Below, piece after piece: positions 1 through 37,368 of a stretch of DNA of 37,368 bases. How positions within the stretch are numbered: the stretch's first letter is position 1; every line of letters begins with the position of its first letter. The DNA lies in the IMG/VR virus record IMGVR_UViG_2537561825_000012; one strand, written 5' to 3'. Below the pieces are notes generated by a model, which had not been told where the DNA came from, did not search any database, and saw only the letters and a list, made by a program, of their open reading frames with translations. The position numbers and the translations under genes were made by a program. Source of the DNA: a virus (taxonomy: Duplodnaviria > Heunggongvirae > Uroviricota > Caudoviricetes).

Positions 1-225
1 GTGGAGAATAAGCTGCACTGGCGTCTGGACGTGGTAATGAATGAAGACGACTGCAAAATAAGAAGAGGAAACGCCGCAGAATTATTTTCAGGGATACGGC
101 ACATCGCTATTAATATTTTGACGAATGATAAGGTATTCAAGGCAGGGTTAAGACGTAAGATGCGAAAAGCAGCTATGGACAGAAACTATCTGGCGTCAGT
201 CCTTGCGGAGAGCGGGCTTTCGTAG
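1..225 (+). CDS. ISAs1-family (H-repeat-associated) transposase, C-terminal fragment truncated by the window edge
   Basis: ORF ending at 225; C-terminal motif [34 protein letters not shown] recalled from ISAs1/H-repeat transposases. Host-side DNA. Confidence 0.55.
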
Positions 226-266: not shown

Positions 267-746
267 TCACCGCAACCTAAACTCATCCGCATCCTGCCAT
301 GCCGGAAACTTTTCTCTATATTCCCGCAATGCCATCATCGACAGCTCCGCATCAATGCGCGTTGCCTGATGCGCGTCGGCAGTAGCGATAATCTCGCCTT
401 GTGGATTAATCACCCGGCTGTCACCGCGATAATGGCAGCCGTTGCCATCGCTGCCGACGCGATTGCATCCCGCCACATACGCCTGATTCTCAATCGCGCG
501 GGCCGTCAGCAATGCCTGCCAGTGCAGAGAGCGCGGAGCAGGCCAGTTGGCGACGTACAGGGCGAGGTCATAATCGTTGAGATTGCGCGACCACACAGGA
601 AAACGTAAGTCGTAGCACACCAGCGGCAAAATACGCCAGCCGCGCCATTCCACAATCACTCGCGCATTGCCCGCTTTATAATGTAGATGCTCATCTGCCA
701 TGCGGAACAGATGACGCTTATCATAAAAATGTACCGTGCCGCCCGG
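267..746 (-). pseudogene. yafV: yafV-like carbon-nitrogen hydrolase (omega-amidase), 3' portion only; 5' part displaced by the prophage
   Basis: Translation carries nitrilase-superfamily motifs (YDKRHLF Lys motif, LPLVCYDLRFP Cys motif) but lacks the N-terminal ~80 aa with the catalytic Glu. The ORF-track start at 794 reads through phage-end sequence. Confidence 0.6.
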
Positions 747-824
747 TGATGCGCCGCGCGATAAATGCACTCTATCTTGTGCGATAAATGGCATCCACGC
801 GGCGTTTCATTATTTGAAAAAGAA
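747..824. mobile_element. Prophage terminus (Mu right-end-like) with repeated putative transposase-binding motifs
   Basis: Starts 5'-TG at 747-748. CGCGATAAATGCAC (757-770) and GCGATAAATGGCAT (781-794) are direct repeats 24 bp apart; CGTTTCAT at 803-810. Resembles the Mu R-end sequence as remembered. Confidence 0.5.
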
Positions 825-1397
825 TTACATTTCAGGTTGCGTTATGACAGTCCCAACAGGGTGATAGCGGTAGATCGTTGACAGTCCAATATCATAGATA
901 ATTGCCAGCCGCTTTCTGTCATACCCTTTCTGGAGCAATCTTGCGATCTGCTCATGCTGCTCCTTCGTCAGTTTCGGGCGACGTCCTCCAACTCTTCCTT
1001 GTGCTCGCGCAGCAGCCAGTCCAGCCAGCGTGCGCTCAACTATCAGTTCACGCTCCATTTCTGCCAGTGCACCCATCATATGAAAAAAGAACCTTCCCAT
1101 CGGAGTGCTGGTATCGATTGAATCCGTCAGACTGCGAAAATTGACACCTTTTGCGCGTAGCTCTTCTGTGAGAGCAATGAGGTGTTTCATTCTTCTACCC
1201 AACCGATCCAGCTTCCAGACCACCAATGTATCCCCTCTTTTAAGGCACTTTAAAGCGCGTTTCAGGCCTGGTCGTTCCGACTTGGTTCCGCTCATTTTGT
1301 CCTCAAAAATCTGTTCACATCCTGCGCACATTAATGCATTGCGTTGCAAATCTGTGTTTTGGTCATTTGTTGACACACGTATGTAGCCAATCAGCAT
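825..1397 (-). CDS. gin: Serine DNA invertase, Gin/Pin/Cin/Hin family
   Basis: N-terminus MLIGYIRVSTNDQNTDLQRNAL from ATG at 1397-1395 with AAGGGAG RBS; ~190 aa. The ORF-track N-terminal extension to 1526 is rejected. Confidence 0.9.
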   Translation of the reverse strand: MLIGYIRVSTNDQNTDLQRNALMCAGCEQIFEDKMSGTKSERPGLKRALKCLKRGDTLVVWKLDRLGRRMKHLIALTEELRAKGVNFRSLTDSIDTSTPMGRFFFHMMGALAEMERELIVERTLAGLAAARAQGRVGGRRPKLTKEQHEQIARLLQKGYDRKRLAIIYDIGLSTIYRYHPVGTVITQPEM

Positions 1398-1451
1398 TAA
1401 AAATACTCCCTTTTGAGTGGTTAAAGTACTGAGATAATGTGGGGAGGATTT

Positions 1452-28316: not shown

Positions 28317-28673
28317 TCAGCCTGCGATTTTTCCTGGTTTTGGCTGAGTATAGAATCGCCCAATCTCAAGAAATGAGCGTTGTTGGTCTGGTGTCATGTC
28401 GTCAAAAGTATCTATTAGTTTTTGTTTTTCTGGGGAAATTTGATTCTGGTTTCTAGTCATACCATCTGTGCTCATTCCAGTGAGCAACCAATTTACATCA
28501 ACATTAAACTCTTGATGCATCTTTAACAGAAACTCCCCTCCAGGCATCGCCTTTCCATTTTCAATCTGACTGATACCACCATTAGAAATACCTAAACGAG
28601 CTGCAAATTCTCTCTGGTTCAACCCTGCTTTCTTCCTCACAGAAATAACGCGCTCTCCTATATCTTTGCTCAT
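28317..28673 (-). CDS. Prophage repressor, HTH XRE (CI/Cro-type)
   Basis: N-terminal HTH LNQREFAARLGISNGGISQIENG; divergent from the early operon; operator palindrome in the intergenic region. Confidence 0.8.
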   Translation of the reverse strand: MSKDIGERVISVRKKAGLNQREFAARLGISNGGISQIENGKAMPGGEFLLKMHQEFNVDVNWLLTGMSTDGMTRNQNQISPEKQKLIDTFDDMTPDQQRSFLEIGRFYTQPKPGKIAG

Positions 28674-30579: not shown

Positions 30580-32349
30580 ATGACCCCGGCACTGACTGAA
30601 AAACTGGTTGAAACAGCCCGCGCGGCACGTGACGCGGGGCATGGTAAACGCGGTGCAATATACGACGCTGCCTGTGCTGAACTTGGCATGTCCCGCGCCA
30701 CTCTGCTGCGCAGGCTGAAGGAGGTATCTGTGACTGATAAACGCAAAAAACGCGCCGATGCCGGGCGCAGCGCCCTGACCCGCGACGAAGCCGCGCTGAT
30801 ATCTGCCACACTGCGTGAGGCCACCCGCAAGAACGGTAAGCGTCTCTATTCCATCGCAGATGCAGTGGAAACCCTGCGGGCTAACGGCTTTATCACCGCA
30901 GGCAGAACAGATGAAACCACCAGTGAGTTTTTCCCGTTGTCTGAAGATGCCATCAGCCGTGCTCTGCGTAACTATGGCCTGCACCCGGAACAACTGGATG
31001 CCCCTGCACCACATACCGAAGTGGCCAGTCTGCATCCCAATCATGTCTGGCAGATTGACGCCTCACTCTGCACGCTTTACTACCTGAGCAATGGACATAA
31101 AGGGCTGCAGGTGATGGACAGCGCGAAGTTCTACAAGAACAAGCCCGCTAACCTTGCCCGTATCGCCAGTGACCGCGTGTGGAGTTACGAGATTACCGAC
31201 CATGCCAGCGGCTGGATTTACGTTGAGTATGTGACGGGCGCGGAATCAGGTGAGAACCTGTGTTCTGTGCTTATCAACGCCATGCAGGAGCGTGGCGGCG
31301 CAGACGTGCTGCACGGCGTGCCGAAAATACTCTATCTCGACCCCGGCTCGGCAAACACCGCGGGTATGACGAAAAACATGTGCCGCTCACTGGGCATCGA
31401 CCTGATAGCGCACAAGCCGCATAACGCCCGCGCCACCGGACAGGTGGAAAAGGCGCGTGACATTATCGAACGCAAGCTGGAGCCGGGTCTGAAGTTCCGG
31501 CCGGTTCACAGTCTGGAAGAACTCAACGCGCTGGCCGCGAAATGGCGCAGCCACTTTAACGCCACGGCTGTTCACAGCCGCCACGGTAAAACCCGCACGG
31601 ATATCTGGCTGAAGATTACTGCTGAGCAGCTGAAAAAAGCGCCTTCCGTTGAGGTATGTCGTGAACTGGCTGTGGCGGCACCAGAACTCCGCAAAGTCAC
31701 GCCAAAACTTCGTGTCTCGTTCCGGGGCACTGAATTTGACGTATCAACGGTACCGGGCGTACTGGTTGGTGAAAAACTGATGATTACCCGTAACCCATGG
31801 CGCAGCGATGTGGCACAGGTGGTTCTGACCGGTGAGGACGGCCACGAGACGTTCTTCCTGGTCGAAGAGGTCAGAAAGAACGAGTTTGGCTTTGCTGAAG
31901 GCGCGGCGGTATTTGGCGAAAGTTACAAAGCCCTGCCGGAAACCCCGGCACAGATGGCGGCAAAAGAAACCGAAGCGCTGGTTACCGGTACAGACAACGC
32001 CGCAGATGCAGCCGCCGCACGCAAGGCGAAGGCGCTGCCGTTCGGCGGGCGGCTTGACCCGTATAAACATATCGACGACACCACACTTCCGGCCTATATG
32101 CCGAAGCGTGGTCAGGCCTCTGACGTACGCGGGCCGCGCACTGAACAACGTCCCATGACTCATGTGGAGGCCGCGAAAGCCCTGCGCGATAAGTTCAGCG
32201 CCGACGGCCTTACCTGGACGCCGGAACATTACCGCCAGTTAACGGCACAGTACCCGGACGGCGTACCGGAAGCCGCACTGGATGAAGTCATGGCCACGCT
32301 GACCACACCGGCCCGCAGCAGTGTTATCAGCATTGTTAACGGCAACTGA
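30580..32349 (+). CDS. DDE transposase (Mu A-like)
   Basis: 589 aa; integrase-type catalytic core pattern (HVWQIDAS..., YLDPGSANT...); directly followed by the AAA+ B-like gene. Confidence 0.8.
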   Translation: MTPALTEKLVETARAARDAGHGKRGAIYDAACAELGMSRATLLRRLKEVSVTDKRKKRADAGRSALTRDEAALISATLREATRKNGKRLYSIADAVETLRANGFITAGRTDETTSEFFPLSEDAISRALRNYGLHPEQLDAPAPHTEVASLHPNHVWQIDASLCTLYYLSNGHKGLQVMDSAKFYKNKPANLARIASDRVWSYEITDHASGWIYVEYVTGAESGENLCSVLINAMQERGGADVLHGVPKILYLDPGSANTAGMTKNMCRSLGIDLIAHKPHNARATGQVEKARDIIERKLEPGLKFRPVHSLEELNALAAKWRSHFNATAVHSRHGKTRTDIWLKITAEQLKKAPSVEVCRELAVAAPELRKVTPKLRVSFRGTEFDVSTVPGVLVGEKLMITRNPWRSDVAQVVLTGEDGHETFFLVEEVRKNEFGFAEGAAVFGESYKALPETPAQMAAKETEALVTGTDNAADAAAARKAKALPFGGRLDPYKHIDDTTLPAYMPKRGQASDVRGPRTEQRPMTHVEAAKALRDKFSADGLTWTPEHYRQLTAQYPDGVPEAALDEVMATLTTPARSSVISIVNGN

Positions 32350-32359
32350 GGAGGGAAAC

Positions 32360-33526
32360 ATGCTGGTACTGAAGCAGCAACTGAAAGAGGCCCGTATTCC
32401 ACAGGCGGTGGTGGCGAGAGCTGTCGATGTTTCTGAGGCCACGCTGGCCCAGATTGTGAATCATAACGCGTGGCCCCGCACCAGCCCCGGAGAAGTGCGC
32501 CGGCGTCTTGCGTCCTGGCTGGAAAGTCAGGGGATTGATACAACGAAGAGTTTTGATGCTGTACAGGGCGCGGCCACGCCCCGTACAGCGGGTACCACAG
32601 ATAAAACGAGCCTCAGTGAGGAAGAGAATATGTTACTCAAAAAACAGGTGTTATTTCCAGCAACCAAAAAAGCGTTTGGTCTTTTCCGTGACCCGTTCGC
32701 CGACGAAGCCATGCAGGGTTCTGATGATGTGTTCACCACCCCGGATATTCGCTACGTGCGTGAGGCGTTGTACCAGACAGCCCGTCATGGTGGGTTTATG
32801 GCCGTCATCGGTGAGTCCGGTGCGGGTAAATCCACGCTGCGCCGCGACCTGACTGAACGTATCACCCGCGAGAATGCGCCGGTAATTGTTATCGAGCCAT
32901 ACATCATCGCTATGGAAGACAACGATGTGAAAGGGAAAACCCTGAAGGCAGCAGCGATTGCCGAAGCCATTATCAGTACCATCGCACCACTGGAAAGCAT
33001 CAGACGCAGTCAGGACGCCCGCTTTCGCCAGTTGCATCGCGTCCTGAAAGACAGCAGCCAGGCGGGGTTCAGCCACGTTCTGGTGATTGAGGAGGCCCAC
33101 AGTCTGCCCATTCCGACACTGAAACACCTCAAACGCTTTTTTGAGCTGGAGTCCGGTTTCAAAAAACTGCTGTCCATCGTGCTGATTGGCCAGCCGGAAC
33201 TGGCGACAAAACTGTCTGAACGCAATATGGAAGTCCGTGAAGTCGTTCAGCGCTGTGAGGTGGTCGAACTTCTGCCTCTGGACAATAACCTTGAAGAGTT
33301 TCTGACGTTCAAACTGCAACGGGCCGGTAAACAACTGACGGACATTATGGACGCCAGCGCAGTGGATGCCATACGTGCCCGCCTGAGCAATCCGGGAAGT
33401 CATCGTAAAAATATGGTCAGCCTGCTGTATCCGCTGGCCGTCAGTAACCTGGTAATAGCCGCCATGAATCTGGCCGCTGAAATCGGGGTTCCACAGGTCA
33501 ACGCTGACGTTGTCAAAGGGGTTTAA
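32360..33526 (+). CDS. AAA+ ATPase transposition protein (Mu B-like)
   Basis: ATG at 32360 after GAGGAGGG; N-terminal HTH, Walker A GESGAGKST, Walker B VLVIEEAH. Confidence 0.8.
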   Translation: MLVLKQQLKEARIPQAVVARAVDVSEATLAQIVNHNAWPRTSPGEVRRRLASWLESQGIDTTKSFDAVQGAATPRTAGTTDKTSLSEEENMLLKKQVLFPATKKAFGLFRDPFADEAMQGSDDVFTTPDIRYVREALYQTARHGGFMAVIGESGAGKSTLRRDLTERITRENAPVIVIEPYIIAMEDNDVKGKTLKAAAIAEAIISTIAPLESIRRSQDARFRQLHRVLKDSSQAGFSHVLVIEEAHSLPIPTLKHLKRFFELESGFKKLLSIVLIGQPELATKLSERNMEVREVVQRCEVVELLPLDNNLEEFLTFKLQRAGKQLTDIMDASAVDAIRARLSNPGSHRKNMVSLLYPLAVSNLVIAAMNLAAEIGVPQVNADVVKGV

Positions 33527-34453: not shown

Positions 34454-34648
34454 ATGATATTTAAATGTATTCAGTGCGAGAGGGATATAACAGCCCTGCG
34501 TTTTCACAGCGCCATCGCCGTGATGTCCGGTAAATACCACATCCCTGCGGTACGCGTCACCCTGGTCTGCCCGTACTGCAGCCAGCATTTTTCGGCAGAC
34601 GTGCCCGTCATGGAATTCTCCCGCCCTGACAGGGAGGACTCGCAATGA
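34454..34648 (+). CDS. Small zinc-ribbon protein (CxxC...CxxC)
   Basis: 64 aa with CIQC and CPYC pairs; GGAG RBS. Confidence 0.55.
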   Translation: MIFKCIQCERDITALRFHSAIAVMSGKYHIPAVRVTLVCPYCSQHFSADVPVMEFSRPDREDSQ

Positions 34649-34917
34649 TTACCCCACAGGAAGCACGACAGCGCACCCGAACCCTTGTTGAACACTATGT
34701 CAACGAGTGTGAATGCCGCGACCTCACCGATGTGAAGCACGTCCTGACGGCGCTAATCAGCATGACCGCTCAAGCCATTGTGGCGACCAACGGAAAGGCG
34801 GCTGCCCTGCAGGTACTGGTGAACACACTAACCCACACGGCAGCGCATGAGGTGCCGTACCGGATGGAAACCACTGCAGAAGGCGGCCTGCACATCACCG
34901 TCAGCCGGAAGCACTGA
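34645..34917 (+). CDS. Hypothetical protein
   Basis: 90 aa, ATGA overlap with upstream gene, AGGGAGGA RBS. Confidence 0.55.
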   Translation: MITPQEARQRTRTLVEHYVNECECRDLTDVKHVLTALISMTAQAIVATNGKAAALQVLVNTLTHTAAHEVPYRMETTAEGGLHITVSRKH

Positions 34918-34926
34918 GGGCGCGGC

Positions 34927-35223
34927 ATGACACGGAACACCATACTCACCCGCACCGCCCTCTACCGTCTGGCCCTGCAGCGTTTCGGGCCGGACGCACA
35001 GGCCCTGAAACTGACAGAAGAGGCCGCTGAACTGGCGGCCAGTGCTGCCCGCAATCTGAACGGACAGGGCAGCGAAAGCGACCTCGCGGCAGAGCTGGCA
35101 GACGTGGAAATCATGACAGAGCAATTGCGCCTTCAGGGGATGGACCGGCTGATTGACTTCCACAAACAGAAAAAACTGGAACGTCTGGCTGCACGACTGG
35201 GCGTGATTTACACGAACGAGTAA
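34927..35223 (+). CDS. MazG-like nucleotide pyrophosphohydrolase domain protein
   Basis: 98 aa all-helical; EEAAELAAS and ELADVEIM acidic motifs characteristic of MazG-type enzymes. Confidence 0.5.
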   Translation: MTRNTILTRTALYRLALQRFGPDAQALKLTEEAAELAASAARNLNGQGSESDLAAELADVEIMTEQLRLQGMDRLIDFHKQKKLERLAARLGVIYTNE

Positions 35224-35237
35224 CCGGGAGGCATTCA

Positions 35238-35453
35238 ATGGCTGACATACTCAGGGAAATCACCGCATGGATACTGATTCTTACTGGCCTGGCGACATGC
35301 CTCAGTGCGGGGGCAGCCCTGGCTGCCCTGCTGATGCACATAACAACACAGTGGTTATGGGAAAAGCTTAAAGCAGCATACAGCCTGAAAGAGCTGTCCG
35401 ACGCTGTCCGGGCATGGAAACGGCAGAAAAATACCGGAGATACAGAACAATGA
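35238..35453 (+). CDS. Small membrane protein
   Basis: 71 aa with one hydrophobic segment; GGGAGG RBS. Confidence 0.5.
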   Translation: MADILREITAWILILTGLATCLSAGAALAALLMHITTQWLWEKLKAAYSLKELSDAVRAWKRQKNTGDTEQ

Positions 35454-36133
35454 CAGACCAGAATAAACACATTGAGAAACTGAAAAAGTTGCTGGCGCTG
35501 GCCGCATCCGGCAACCCGCACGAGGCCGCTCTGGCACTGTGCCGAGCCCGTAAACTGATGGATGTTCACGGCATCACACATTCCGACATTGCTATGAGTG
35601 ATATTGATGAAACCATCAGTCACTACTGGCCGACAGGCAGTCTCCGTCCACCGCGCTACATGCTGGGCCTGATGAACATCATCCGCGAGGTATTTGGTGT
35701 TAACTCCATCATTCACCCCGGCACGCATCCGTCTGTGGGGTTCTACGGCAACCGGGAACGTGCGGCACTGGCTGCATACACCTGGGAAGTGCTGGCCCGT
35801 CAGCTGAAAAAGGCGCGTCAGCAGTATATCAGTGCACAGAACAAAAGAATAAAAACCGCCACCCGCACCAGCCGTGGAGACCAGTTTGCCGAAGGCTGGG
35901 TGCTGGCCGTTATCAGTGAAATACAGTCCTTTGCCCTGACCGATGATGAGCGTGAACTGATGCAGCAGTGGCTGGAACATAAATACCCGCAGACGCAAAC
36001 CACCAGGGCGCGTAAACCGGGAAGAAGCCGCAATGGCGACGCCTCGCGCTATGCGGGGTTTCGTGAAGGGCAGAACGTCAGACTGCACCGCCCGGTCAGT
36101 GGGCAGGAACAACAGAAACTGGAGGCCAGATGA
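35450..36133 (+). CDS. Hypothetical early protein with KLLALAASGNPHEAALAL motif
   Basis: ATG at 35450 overlapping the upstream stop with GGAGA RBS; the ORF-track start at 35414 is less likely. Confidence 0.55.
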   Translation: MTDQNKHIEKLKKLLALAASGNPHEAALALCRARKLMDVHGITHSDIAMSDIDETISHYWPTGSLRPPRYMLGLMNIIREVFGVNSIIHPGTHPSVGFYGNRERAALAAYTWEVLARQLKKARQQYISAQNKRIKTATRTSRGDQFAEGWVLAVISEIQSFALTDDERELMQQWLEHKYPQTQTTRARKPGRSRNGDASRYAGFREGQNVRLHRPVSGQEQQKLEAR

Positions 36134-36360
36134 TTACGCTATCAGGTAAAAGCCGGAAATTAAAAGCCTGCCGAATATCTGCCAGATACCTTTTTGCCCG
36201 CGCCTTTTTTAAGAACGTCAGGCCGGGGATCACAATTGGTGTTATTGCCGGACGCGAACAGGTTGAAAAATACATGTCAGGTGCATGGTGGAATAACGAC
36301 CCTGTCATTGCTGCCCGTAATATTCATATCGAATGGGGAGGTATTCAGAATGACTACTGA
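36130..36360 (+). CDS. Hypothetical protein
   Basis: 76 aa, ATGA overlap with the upstream gene. Confidence 0.45.
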   Translation: MITLSGKSRKLKACRISARYLFARAFFKNVRPGITIGVIAGREQVEKYMSGAWWNNDPVIAARNIHIEWGGIQNDY

Positions 36361-36556
36361 AACCATTGTCTGTTTTCTTTTCTGGTATATGTACGCAGGA
36401 TCATGCAGCGCAAGACTTCATCGTTCCCTGGGCTATGGCAGGCACTACGACACCGCGCATTACATCCTGTACATGACCGCCGTCATGTTGTTCTGGCCAG
36501 TCCCCCTGCCAGCTGCAACCGACATTGTTGCCGACAGACTGAAAAAAAGGAGATGA
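36350..36556 (+). CDS. Small membrane protein
   Basis: 68 aa from ATG at 36350 with GGGGAGG RBS; hydrophobic segments. Confidence 0.45.
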   Translation: MTTETIVCFLFWYMYAGSCSARLHRSLGYGRHYDTAHYILYMTAVMLFWPVPLPAATDIVADRLKKRR

Positions 36557-36557
36557 T

Positions 36558-37007
36558 ATGCAGAAAAAACGCCTGATACAGCTTATCCATATTGCCCGTA
36601 ATGAACTGGGTATGGATGAAGACACCTACCGCCAGATGTTACAGGGGCTGACCGGTAAAGCCTCAACCAAAGGAATGGATACCACACAACTAAACTGCGT
36701 GCTGGAATCCATGAAAAAGAAAGGCTTTCGCGTTAAACCAGCCAGAAAAGCCAGCTCCGGTTTACCGCTGGATAACCATCCGCAGTCCAGGAAAATTCGT
36801 GCGCTATGGCTTGAAATGGCTGCTGCCGGCATTGTTCGTGACCGTTCAGAAAATGCATTAGCGAGGTGGATCAAGCGGGAAACGGGCATCAGCGCCCTGC
36901 GCTGGCTCAGTACTGAACAGGCAAGCAGTGTTATTGAGAAACTGAAGAAGTGGCAGCGCAGAGCTGCGGGAGTCAAACATGAGCGACCTGAATCAGTTTC
37001 GAAGTAA
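36558..37007 (+). CDS. gemA: GemA-like regulatory protein (Mu gp16 family)
   Basis: 149 aa; N-terminal KKRLIQLIHIARNELGMDEDTYR pattern; overlaps the Mor-like gene as in Mu. Confidence 0.7.
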   Translation: MQKKRLIQLIHIARNELGMDEDTYRQMLQGLTGKASTKGMDTTQLNCVLESMKKKGFRVKPARKASSGLPLDNHPQSRKIRALWLEMAAAGIVRDRSENALARWIKRETGISALRWLSTEQASSVIEKLKKWQRRAAGVKHERPESVSK

Positions 37008-37368
37008 GGGGCCGGAACTCCTGGTGGAACTGGCACAGCATACCTCTGAGACCGTTCGCGAGATTATTGATATTGAGCCCGAAGTTGCCGACCAGATTGG
37101 TCAGGCCGTCGCGAACCGAATGATGCAGGTCTGGGGCGGGCAAAACGTTTATTTCCCGATGGGCATGGTATGGAAGGTCAGTCAGCGCGACCGGGAAATC
37201 TTCAGGGAGTTTAACGGACGCAACCACCACGAACTGGCCCGCAAATTTGGTGTTTCGCTTCAGTGGGTCTACAGCGTGGTTAAGCGGGTAAGAAAAGAAG
37301 AACTGGATCGGATGCAGGGCAAGCTATTTGCTGATGAACCCGATGCAGATACGGAGAAAAAAGAGTAA
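36979..37368 (+). CDS. mor: Mor-family transcriptional activator
   Basis: 129 aa; conserved GGQNVYFP...FNGRN..ELARKFGVS...VY pattern of Mor/C activators; stop codon is the last triplet of the window. Confidence 0.75.
   Translation: MSDLNQFRSKGPELLVELAQHTSETVREIIDIEPEVADQIGQAVANRMMQVWGGQNVYFPMGMVWKVSQRDREIFREFNGRNHHELARKFGVSLQWVYSVVKRVRKEELDRMQGKLFADEPDADTEKKE

Follow-up and report, generated by a model that had tools for sequence, protein, structure and literature searches.

A BcepMu-like transposable prophage in Escherichia coli yafV, its 6-bp target-site duplication and its two-site ends

The window (the whole stretch of DNA analysed, 37,368 nucleotides) most probably holds a BcepMu-like transposable myovirus prophage that inserted into the E. 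coli gene yafV by DDE transposition with a 6-bp target-site duplication, a reading to which we assign a probability of about 0.9. The element, its family, its end repeats and its near-identical copies are all in public records and belong to known biology. The host locus and the extent of the element were delimited as follows.

1-225, plus strand: 3' end of an ISAs1-family transposase (pseudo)gene (as annotated at the intact locus L001, which is 100% identical)
267-746, minus strand: 3' fragment of yafV (2-oxoglutaramate amidase), codons 98-256 and the stop codon (100% identity to intact yafV; Pfam CN_hydrolase; translation)
741-746, no strand: GCCCGG, left copy of the 6-bp target-site duplication (far junction in L020-L022; seven other insertions)
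747-37368, no strand: BcepMu-like transposable prophage body, beginning at the right terminus and ending with the mor stop codon (gene order in L004, L006 and L007; position of the left end)

Many complete E. coli genomes whose yafV is uninterrupted matched positions 1-746 of the window at 100% identity; the ISAs1-family (pseudo)gene is the usual neighbour of yafV in many strains and serves as context only. The intact gene in L001 reads ...gtaccgtgccgcccgg|ctcaaccagc, or in longer form ...gtaccgtgccgcccgg|ctcaaccagcaaaaagcgg, and the window reads ...gtaccgtgccgcccgg|TGATGCGCCGCGCGATAAATGCAC across the same point. The two sequences diverge after gtaccgtgccgcccgg, and homology therefore stops exactly at 746|747, with foreign DNA beginning TGATGCGCC… at 747. 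When window positions 741-1400 were used as the query, most of the ~720 matching genomes aligned from query base 7, which is window position 747. The base preceding TG differs among insertions, and the element therefore ends with the T at 747. An earlier note on this DNA had placed the end of the yafV match at about 746 and a 5'-TG terminus directly after it; both placements were borne out by the comparison with uninterrupted yafV (TG at 747-748), and the bases that it quoted from 747 on were correct as read in the window. The insertion splits yafV at codon 97/98. Only yafV is inactivated here, and it encodes a non-essential, dispensable amidase.

The window ends at the mor stop codon (37368), 162 bp before the left terminus. 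Because it stops short by this distance, the far end lies outside it, and the second copy of the duplication was sought in other records. We predicted the truncated N-terminal YafV products for duplications of 4, 5, 6 and 7 bp and looked them up among public proteins by exact sequence. The 6-bp prediction (99 aa, ...LLVEPG*) was present and is annotated in the E. coli P0301867.x drafts, whereas the 4-, 5- and 7-bp predictions had no exact match among public proteins. The fragment ends in LLVEPG because the phage TGA comes next in frame. Contigs that encode it have the gene order fadE-ivy-yafV'-[left end]-mor-gemA..., and their phage part differs from window positions 34528-37368 at 1 to 5 of 2841 positions. 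The far junction was read in these sibling assemblies (E. coli P0301867.x and Logan SRR488365) and the near junction in the window. In the sibling draft genomes, the far junction of the yafV insertion is …GTCTAATCA|GCCCGG|CTCAACC…, and in a longer read ...ctcaagtctaatca|GCCCGG|CTCAACCAGCAAAAAGCGG. The host flank at this junction (L020-L022) starts at position 2241 of L001, and the flank in the window ends at position 2246. GCCCGG is duplicated and no yafV sequence was lost, so the event was a simple insertion. The earlier note had named CCCGG (742-746) as a 5-bp duplication and had proposed a search for the same 5 bp at the far end; its duplication is one base short, since the far junction and the seven other insertions extend it to GCCCGG at 741-746, and the sibling assemblies carry these 6 bp at the far end.

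Both junctions were also read at seven independent insertions, the phage sequence being TGATGCG... at the one and ...GTCT[A/G]ATCA at the other. The flanking repeat was exactly 6 bp in 7/7, never 5 or 7 bp (GCAGGG, ACCCGA, AACTGG, CTCAGG, CCCAGG, GCGCGA and CGATGG), and together with yafV a 6-bp duplication was found at 8/8 sites. Two metagenomic IMG/VR contigs with paired ends had no duplication; their flanks were taken as virion-derived and are therefore uninformative on duplication length. Short non-duplicated flanks on IMG/VR metagenomic contigs are consistent with, and not proof of, virion host DNA and replicative transposition. Searches for the far junction by pattern found none, either with the exact pattern ATCA-N0-9-CTCAACCAGC... 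in viral_contigs or with GTCTRATCA-N0-9-CTCAACCAGC... in genome_contigs and metagenome_contigs. An internal yafV open reading frame of 144 aa was rejected as a junction marker; it is not specific and is also present in frameshifted yafV alleles. A fusion frame of 175 aa is junction-specific but was found only on ~1.4-kb contigs. In the accessible literature we found no published duplication length for BcepMu, and we could not find a measured 6-bp duplication there.

The genes that place the element in its family are listed below.

825-1397, minus strand: Gin-like serine invertase, 190 aa, reading towards the terminus (Pfam Resolvase and HTH_7; recombinase annotation in relatives)
28317-28673, minus strand: HTH_3 repressor candidate between the late and early blocks (Pfam; position between divergent gene blocks)
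30580-32349, plus strand: DDE (rve) transposase TnpA, 589 aa (Pfam rve; PHROG 310 transposase; identity to BcepMu/phiE255 and PhiKM)
32360-33526, plus strand: AAA+ (AAA_22, ExeA-like) transposition ATPase (Pfam; PHROG 296 'DNA transposition protein')
36979-37368, plus strand: Mor-family transcription activator, last gene before the left end (Pfam Mor, 1.3e-43)

The element is ~36.8 kb long (36,784 bp; window 747-37368 plus 162 bp), with the left terminus ...GTCTAATCA. The gin stop codon lies at 825-827. Inward from gin, the minus strand carries tail-fibre, baseplate, tape-measure, sheath/tube, head and lysis genes, followed by a divergent control region. The plus-strand block encodes small HTH proteins, a DUF3102 protein, the transposase, the ATPase, gam, gemA and mor. 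According to the ORF map and the annotation of relatives, this early block and the late block lie on opposite strands, and the early block is read towards the left end, mor being its last gene; an early region inverted relative to Mu is a described BcepMu feature (PMC2771037, PMC3091646). TnpA showed 67.8-68.7% identity over 98% of its length to the proteins of the Burkholderia phages BcepMu and phiE255. It was 100% identical to the transposase of Escherichia phage PhiKM, a partial genome (PQ738613) that NCBI places in Bcepmuvirus. Its nearest non-phage relatives were IS481-family transposases (~25% identity over residues 30-388, E 1e-12 to 1e-19), which agrees with the assignment of BcepMu TnpA to the Tn552-IS1604 family in the literature (PMC2771037). 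Members of the IS481 / Tn552-IS1604 group differ from the present element in being small, without phage genes and of low identity. The AAA+ ATPase is presumed to be the functional counterpart of MuB. By Pfam, no tyrosine or large-serine integrase was seen in the element, whose sole recombinase is the 190-aa Gin-type invertase. The element is of the BcepMu type, not the Mu type, with an apparently complete gene set.

Our comparison with BcepMu covered the ends and the transposase. The element shares with BcepMu and phiE255 (genus Bcepmuvirus) the mor gene adjoining the left end, the inverted early block, the ExeA-like AAA ATPase and the TG...CA termini. With BcepMu-like phages it also shares a lysogeny-control region between divergent gene blocks, and P2-like tail genes combined with Mu-like head genes (PMC2771037). 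BcepMu and phiE255 differ in host, which here is E. coli, and BcepMu has an acyltransferase beside the right end, where the present element has the Gin invertase and a multi-site invertible tail-fibre region. PhiKM and the copies in E. coli are much closer, with 99.4% DNA identity over the baseplate/tail region and the same termini. The E. coli copies differ in occupying other chromosomal sites and in the content of two intervals, the one between lysis and repressor genes and the one just inside the left end. The lysis-repressor interval holds a DNA adenine methylase in some copies and other genes elsewhere. Between mor and the left terminus, some copies have two extra small genes (L006 38475-39272 and L013 1338-2135, compared with L004 and L007), and these copies end in the variant terminus ...CATGTCTGATCA, not ...CAAGTCTAATCA. 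The two intervals are variable cargo positions.

The tail-fibre region beside gin also varies. A crossover-like sequence of ~23 nt (AACGTTGGTTTGGGGGAAGGCTC and variants) is present there in three copies, at 1460 (plus strand), 3072 (minus) and 3511 (minus). An IMG/VR contig with the same yafV junction (L003) matches the window without a difference as far as 1482, after which its segments are arranged in another order (L003 1483-3540). This suggests a multi-site Gin inversion system that would swap tail-fibre C-termini. Within the 3' end of gin there is an exact 9-nt direct repeat, TGACAGTCC, at 845-853 and 879-887 (34 nt apart), which may be due to chance.

Between the terminus and gin, three features were distinguished.

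747-769, plus strand: 23-bp unit 1, starting 5'-TG, with the core GCGATAAAT(G) at 758-767; presumed transposase-binding site R1 (published phiE255/BcepMu repeats)
770-792, plus strand: 23-bp unit 2, with the core GCGATAAAT(G) at 781-790; presumed transposase-binding site R2 (repeat scan; end alignment)
805-826, no strand: dyad TTTCA (805-809)-TTATT-TGAAA (815-819), then AATT (823-826) (position conserved in right-type ends of related phages)

The sequence GCGATAAATG occurs exactly twice, at 758-767 and 781-790, with a spacing of 23 bp. The degenerate core GMGATAWWT matched only at these two places in the 37,368 bases on both strands; two matches per window are no more than expected by chance, whereas their placement at nt 12-20 and 35-43 of the element is non-random. 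We aligned five termini from the outside in, namely the right end in the window, two E. coli left-end variants and both BcepMu ends, left and right. In all five, TGA occupies nt 1-3 and the core G[C/A]GATAWWT stands at nt 12-20 and once more at 35-43, with little conservation elsewhere; over the first 46 nt, the BcepMu right end and the right end in the window agree at 28 positions. When IMG/VR was scanned with TGA-N8-GMGATAWWT-N14-GMGATAWWT, at least 120 loci matched; most of those listed are no more than a few hundred bases from the end of a contig and point inward, and the two-site architecture is therefore a family-wide end signature. The ends of Tn552 are also said to carry two 23-bp transposase sites, with duplications of 6-7 bp. 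Imperfect 23-bp direct repeats at the phiE255 and BcepMu ends have been described and proposed as transposase sites (PMC2920897), and such repeats with TG/CA termini characterise BcepMu-like ends (PMC2920897, PMC2628397); the present element has both, at both ends. We infer that TnpA binds the two phased sites. The signature picks out ends of this kind throughout IMG/VR and could serve for the automatic delimitation of BcepMu-type prophages. Of the three transposase-binding repeats that the earlier note had proposed, the two direct repeats near the terminus stand, and the third motif lacks the repeat core.

The same note had assigned the element to the Mu family. A true Mu-type end, with MuA and MuB, a 5-bp CCCGG duplication and MuA-type sites R1-R3, would account for the TG terminus and for the Mor, Gam, GemA and Gin homologues, and some sequence resemblance also points that way. 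The likeness of the first nucleotides to the Mu R end is real, with 17/23 identities in an ungapped alignment to the first 23 nt of Mu attR, but weak: among the 1492 other 23-mers of the window that begin with TGA, one in unrelated coding sequence (30630) scored 18/23, and the resemblance is therefore only mildly unusual. The 22-bp consensus of MuA end sites is YGTTTCAYTNNAARYRCGAAAR. Positions 803-824 agree with it at 14 of 20 specified positions, which is in the top ~0.02% of window 22-mers. However, the two repeats score at most 11/20, compared with 16-20/20 for Mu's own R1-R3, and both are without the CGAAA(R) half of the MuA site. Pfam reported only rve in TnpA and no Mu-specific domains, Mu was absent from the 69 phage tblastn hits of TnpA (E<=1e-5), and MuA chains were absent from its PDB phmmer hits (E<=1). 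Mu has a 5-bp duplication and MuA, as opposed to the 6 bp found at all eight sites and the IS481/Tn552-like rve transposase here. In Mu, the early genes (c, ner, A, B ... mor) read inward from the left end and are collinear with the late ones, and here the early region is inverted; the tail module differs as well (PMC2771037). What the element does share with Mu, besides the homologues named above, is a presumed replicative-transposition lifestyle, asymmetric multi-site ends and TG...CA termini (TG at 747-748, left end ...ATCA). The transposase, duplication length, site consensus and early-region orientation are all non-Mu, and we regard a Mu-type end as very improbable. For annotation, this means that Mu is the wrong model for E. 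coli prophages of this kind; their boundaries are to be placed by the 6-bp duplication, by termini of the form TGA-N8-G[C/A]GATAWWT-N14-G[C/A]GATAWWT, and by a left end ~160 bp beyond mor.

Two further explanations concern the yafV junction itself. The short direct repeat that flanks the element could be the att core of a prophage with a site-specific integrase, GCCCGG being the core and yafV the attachment site. Against this, ~640 of 5426 complete E. coli genomes carry the same end, and they carry it at many unrelated chromosomal loci, including yehY, gspF, gspL, irp2, dmsC, a fimbrial usher gene, rstB, ssuB and a site upstream of fdrA, and at least 17 distinct, unrelated flanks each have their own hexamer. 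The yafV junction was in none of the 5426 complete genomes, and an integrase of the tyrosine or large-serine type is not seen. Site-specific integration is thus the least credible of the alternatives, with a probability close to nil, and the occurrence of the same termini at many unrelated sites supports the claim of the earlier note that the prophage reached yafV by transposition. A chimeric assembly, or a secondary rearrangement (deletion or inversion) that stops at the phage terminus, would fit the single junction in the window and the differences among assemblies in the nearby invertible tail-fibre region. However, the same right junction is present in the IMG/VR contig L003 and in Logan assemblies of several runs, three further assemblies contain the complementary left junction, and yafV, the 6-bp overlap aside, is complete. 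A chimera or rearrangement in place of a simple insertion is accordingly hardly likely.

Under the preferred reading, a BcepMu-like prophage inserted by DDE transposition, the rve-type TnpA (589 aa) would bind two 23-bp-phased sites with the core G[C/A]GATAWWT at each end, probably assisted by the AAA+ ATPase encoded beside tnpA. TnpA would then expose a 3'-OH at the terminal 5'-TG...CA-3', and both ends would be joined to target phosphates staggered by 6 bp. Gap repair would duplicate GCCCGG and leave the second copy after the left end, 162 bp beyond the window.

The third motif, CGTTTCATTATTTGAAAAAG at 803-822, contains no repeat core. It had been quoted in the earlier note as a further repeat copy, and it proved to be a different element, the dyad TTTCA-N5-TGAAA. 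The IMG/VR ends among those listed sort into two classes, right-type and left-type. Right-type ends start TGA[A/T]GCGC[C/G]GCG, and in most of the 41 listed the dyad begins at nt 57-59, usually with AATT within a few bases after it. Dyad arms of at least 5 bp were found in 20 of the 41 listed right-type ends (49%), as opposed to 17% of shuffles and 0 of the 36 listed left-type ends. The arms vary among phages (TTTCA/TGAAA, GTTTGC/GCAAAC, GTTGCA/TGCAAC, CTTTTG/CAAAAG and TTCAC/GTGAA), and symmetry and position are kept. Left-type ends have three to four GGGA(W) repeats ~11 nt apart just inside the two 23-bp sites, and right ends are without them. Examples of these repeats are found in L004 (38759-38920) and in the IMG/VR loci L053, L065, L079 and L093.

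The dyad may be a site for a dimeric phage or host protein, or it may be a diverged third transposase site like Mu R3, and the left-end GGGA(W) array is possibly a pac site or an accessory-protein site. Quite tentatively, and with the odds against it, one might suppose that the third motif is an undescribed cis element specific to the right end, which together with the left-end array would set the functional asymmetry of the ends. We could not find this asymmetry of right-end dyad and left-end GGGA repeats in the accessible literature. The dyad was rejected as a hairpin or terminator by inspection, having a 5-bp A/T-rich stem and no U-tract on either strand. The terminal 12 nt of the element (747-758, TGATGCGCCGCG) have an 83%-complementary inverted copy at 798-809, 39 nt inward, which overlaps the start of the third motif; this inverted repeat is absent by eye from the BcepMu right end and the E. 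coli left end, and we gave it no role.

As for target choice, a preference NNNNGR suggested by the first nine sites was discarded as an ascertainment artefact, the BLAST ranking having favoured ...GG-like flanks. Among eight sites from an evenly spread sample, G was at position 5 in 4/8, and there was no clear consensus.

The same phage disrupts more consequential genes in other lineages, such as irp2 of the yersiniabactin locus. Many complete genomes, of human, dog, wastewater and river origin, have this gene (yersiniabactin synthetase HMWP2) interrupted by the prophage (E. coli hits H13-H30, e.g. NZ_CP015159.1 3551028/3588595), and these copies probably represent one clonal insertion inactivating the siderophore locus. 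The right end is also found on plasmids. On plasmids of 92-98 kb, the right end and gin are present at 99.7% identity, with the match beginning precisely at the TG terminus, and one 87.6-kb plasmid has just the terminal 111 bp. Among these plasmid hits are H159 (NZ_CP022228.3), H161 (NZ_CP172188.1) and H179 (NZ_CP150992.1). In about 140 further plasmid records of ~90-100 kb, gin alone is matched, at ~76% identity. The plasmid matches may be phage insertions into plasmids, or remnants of them.
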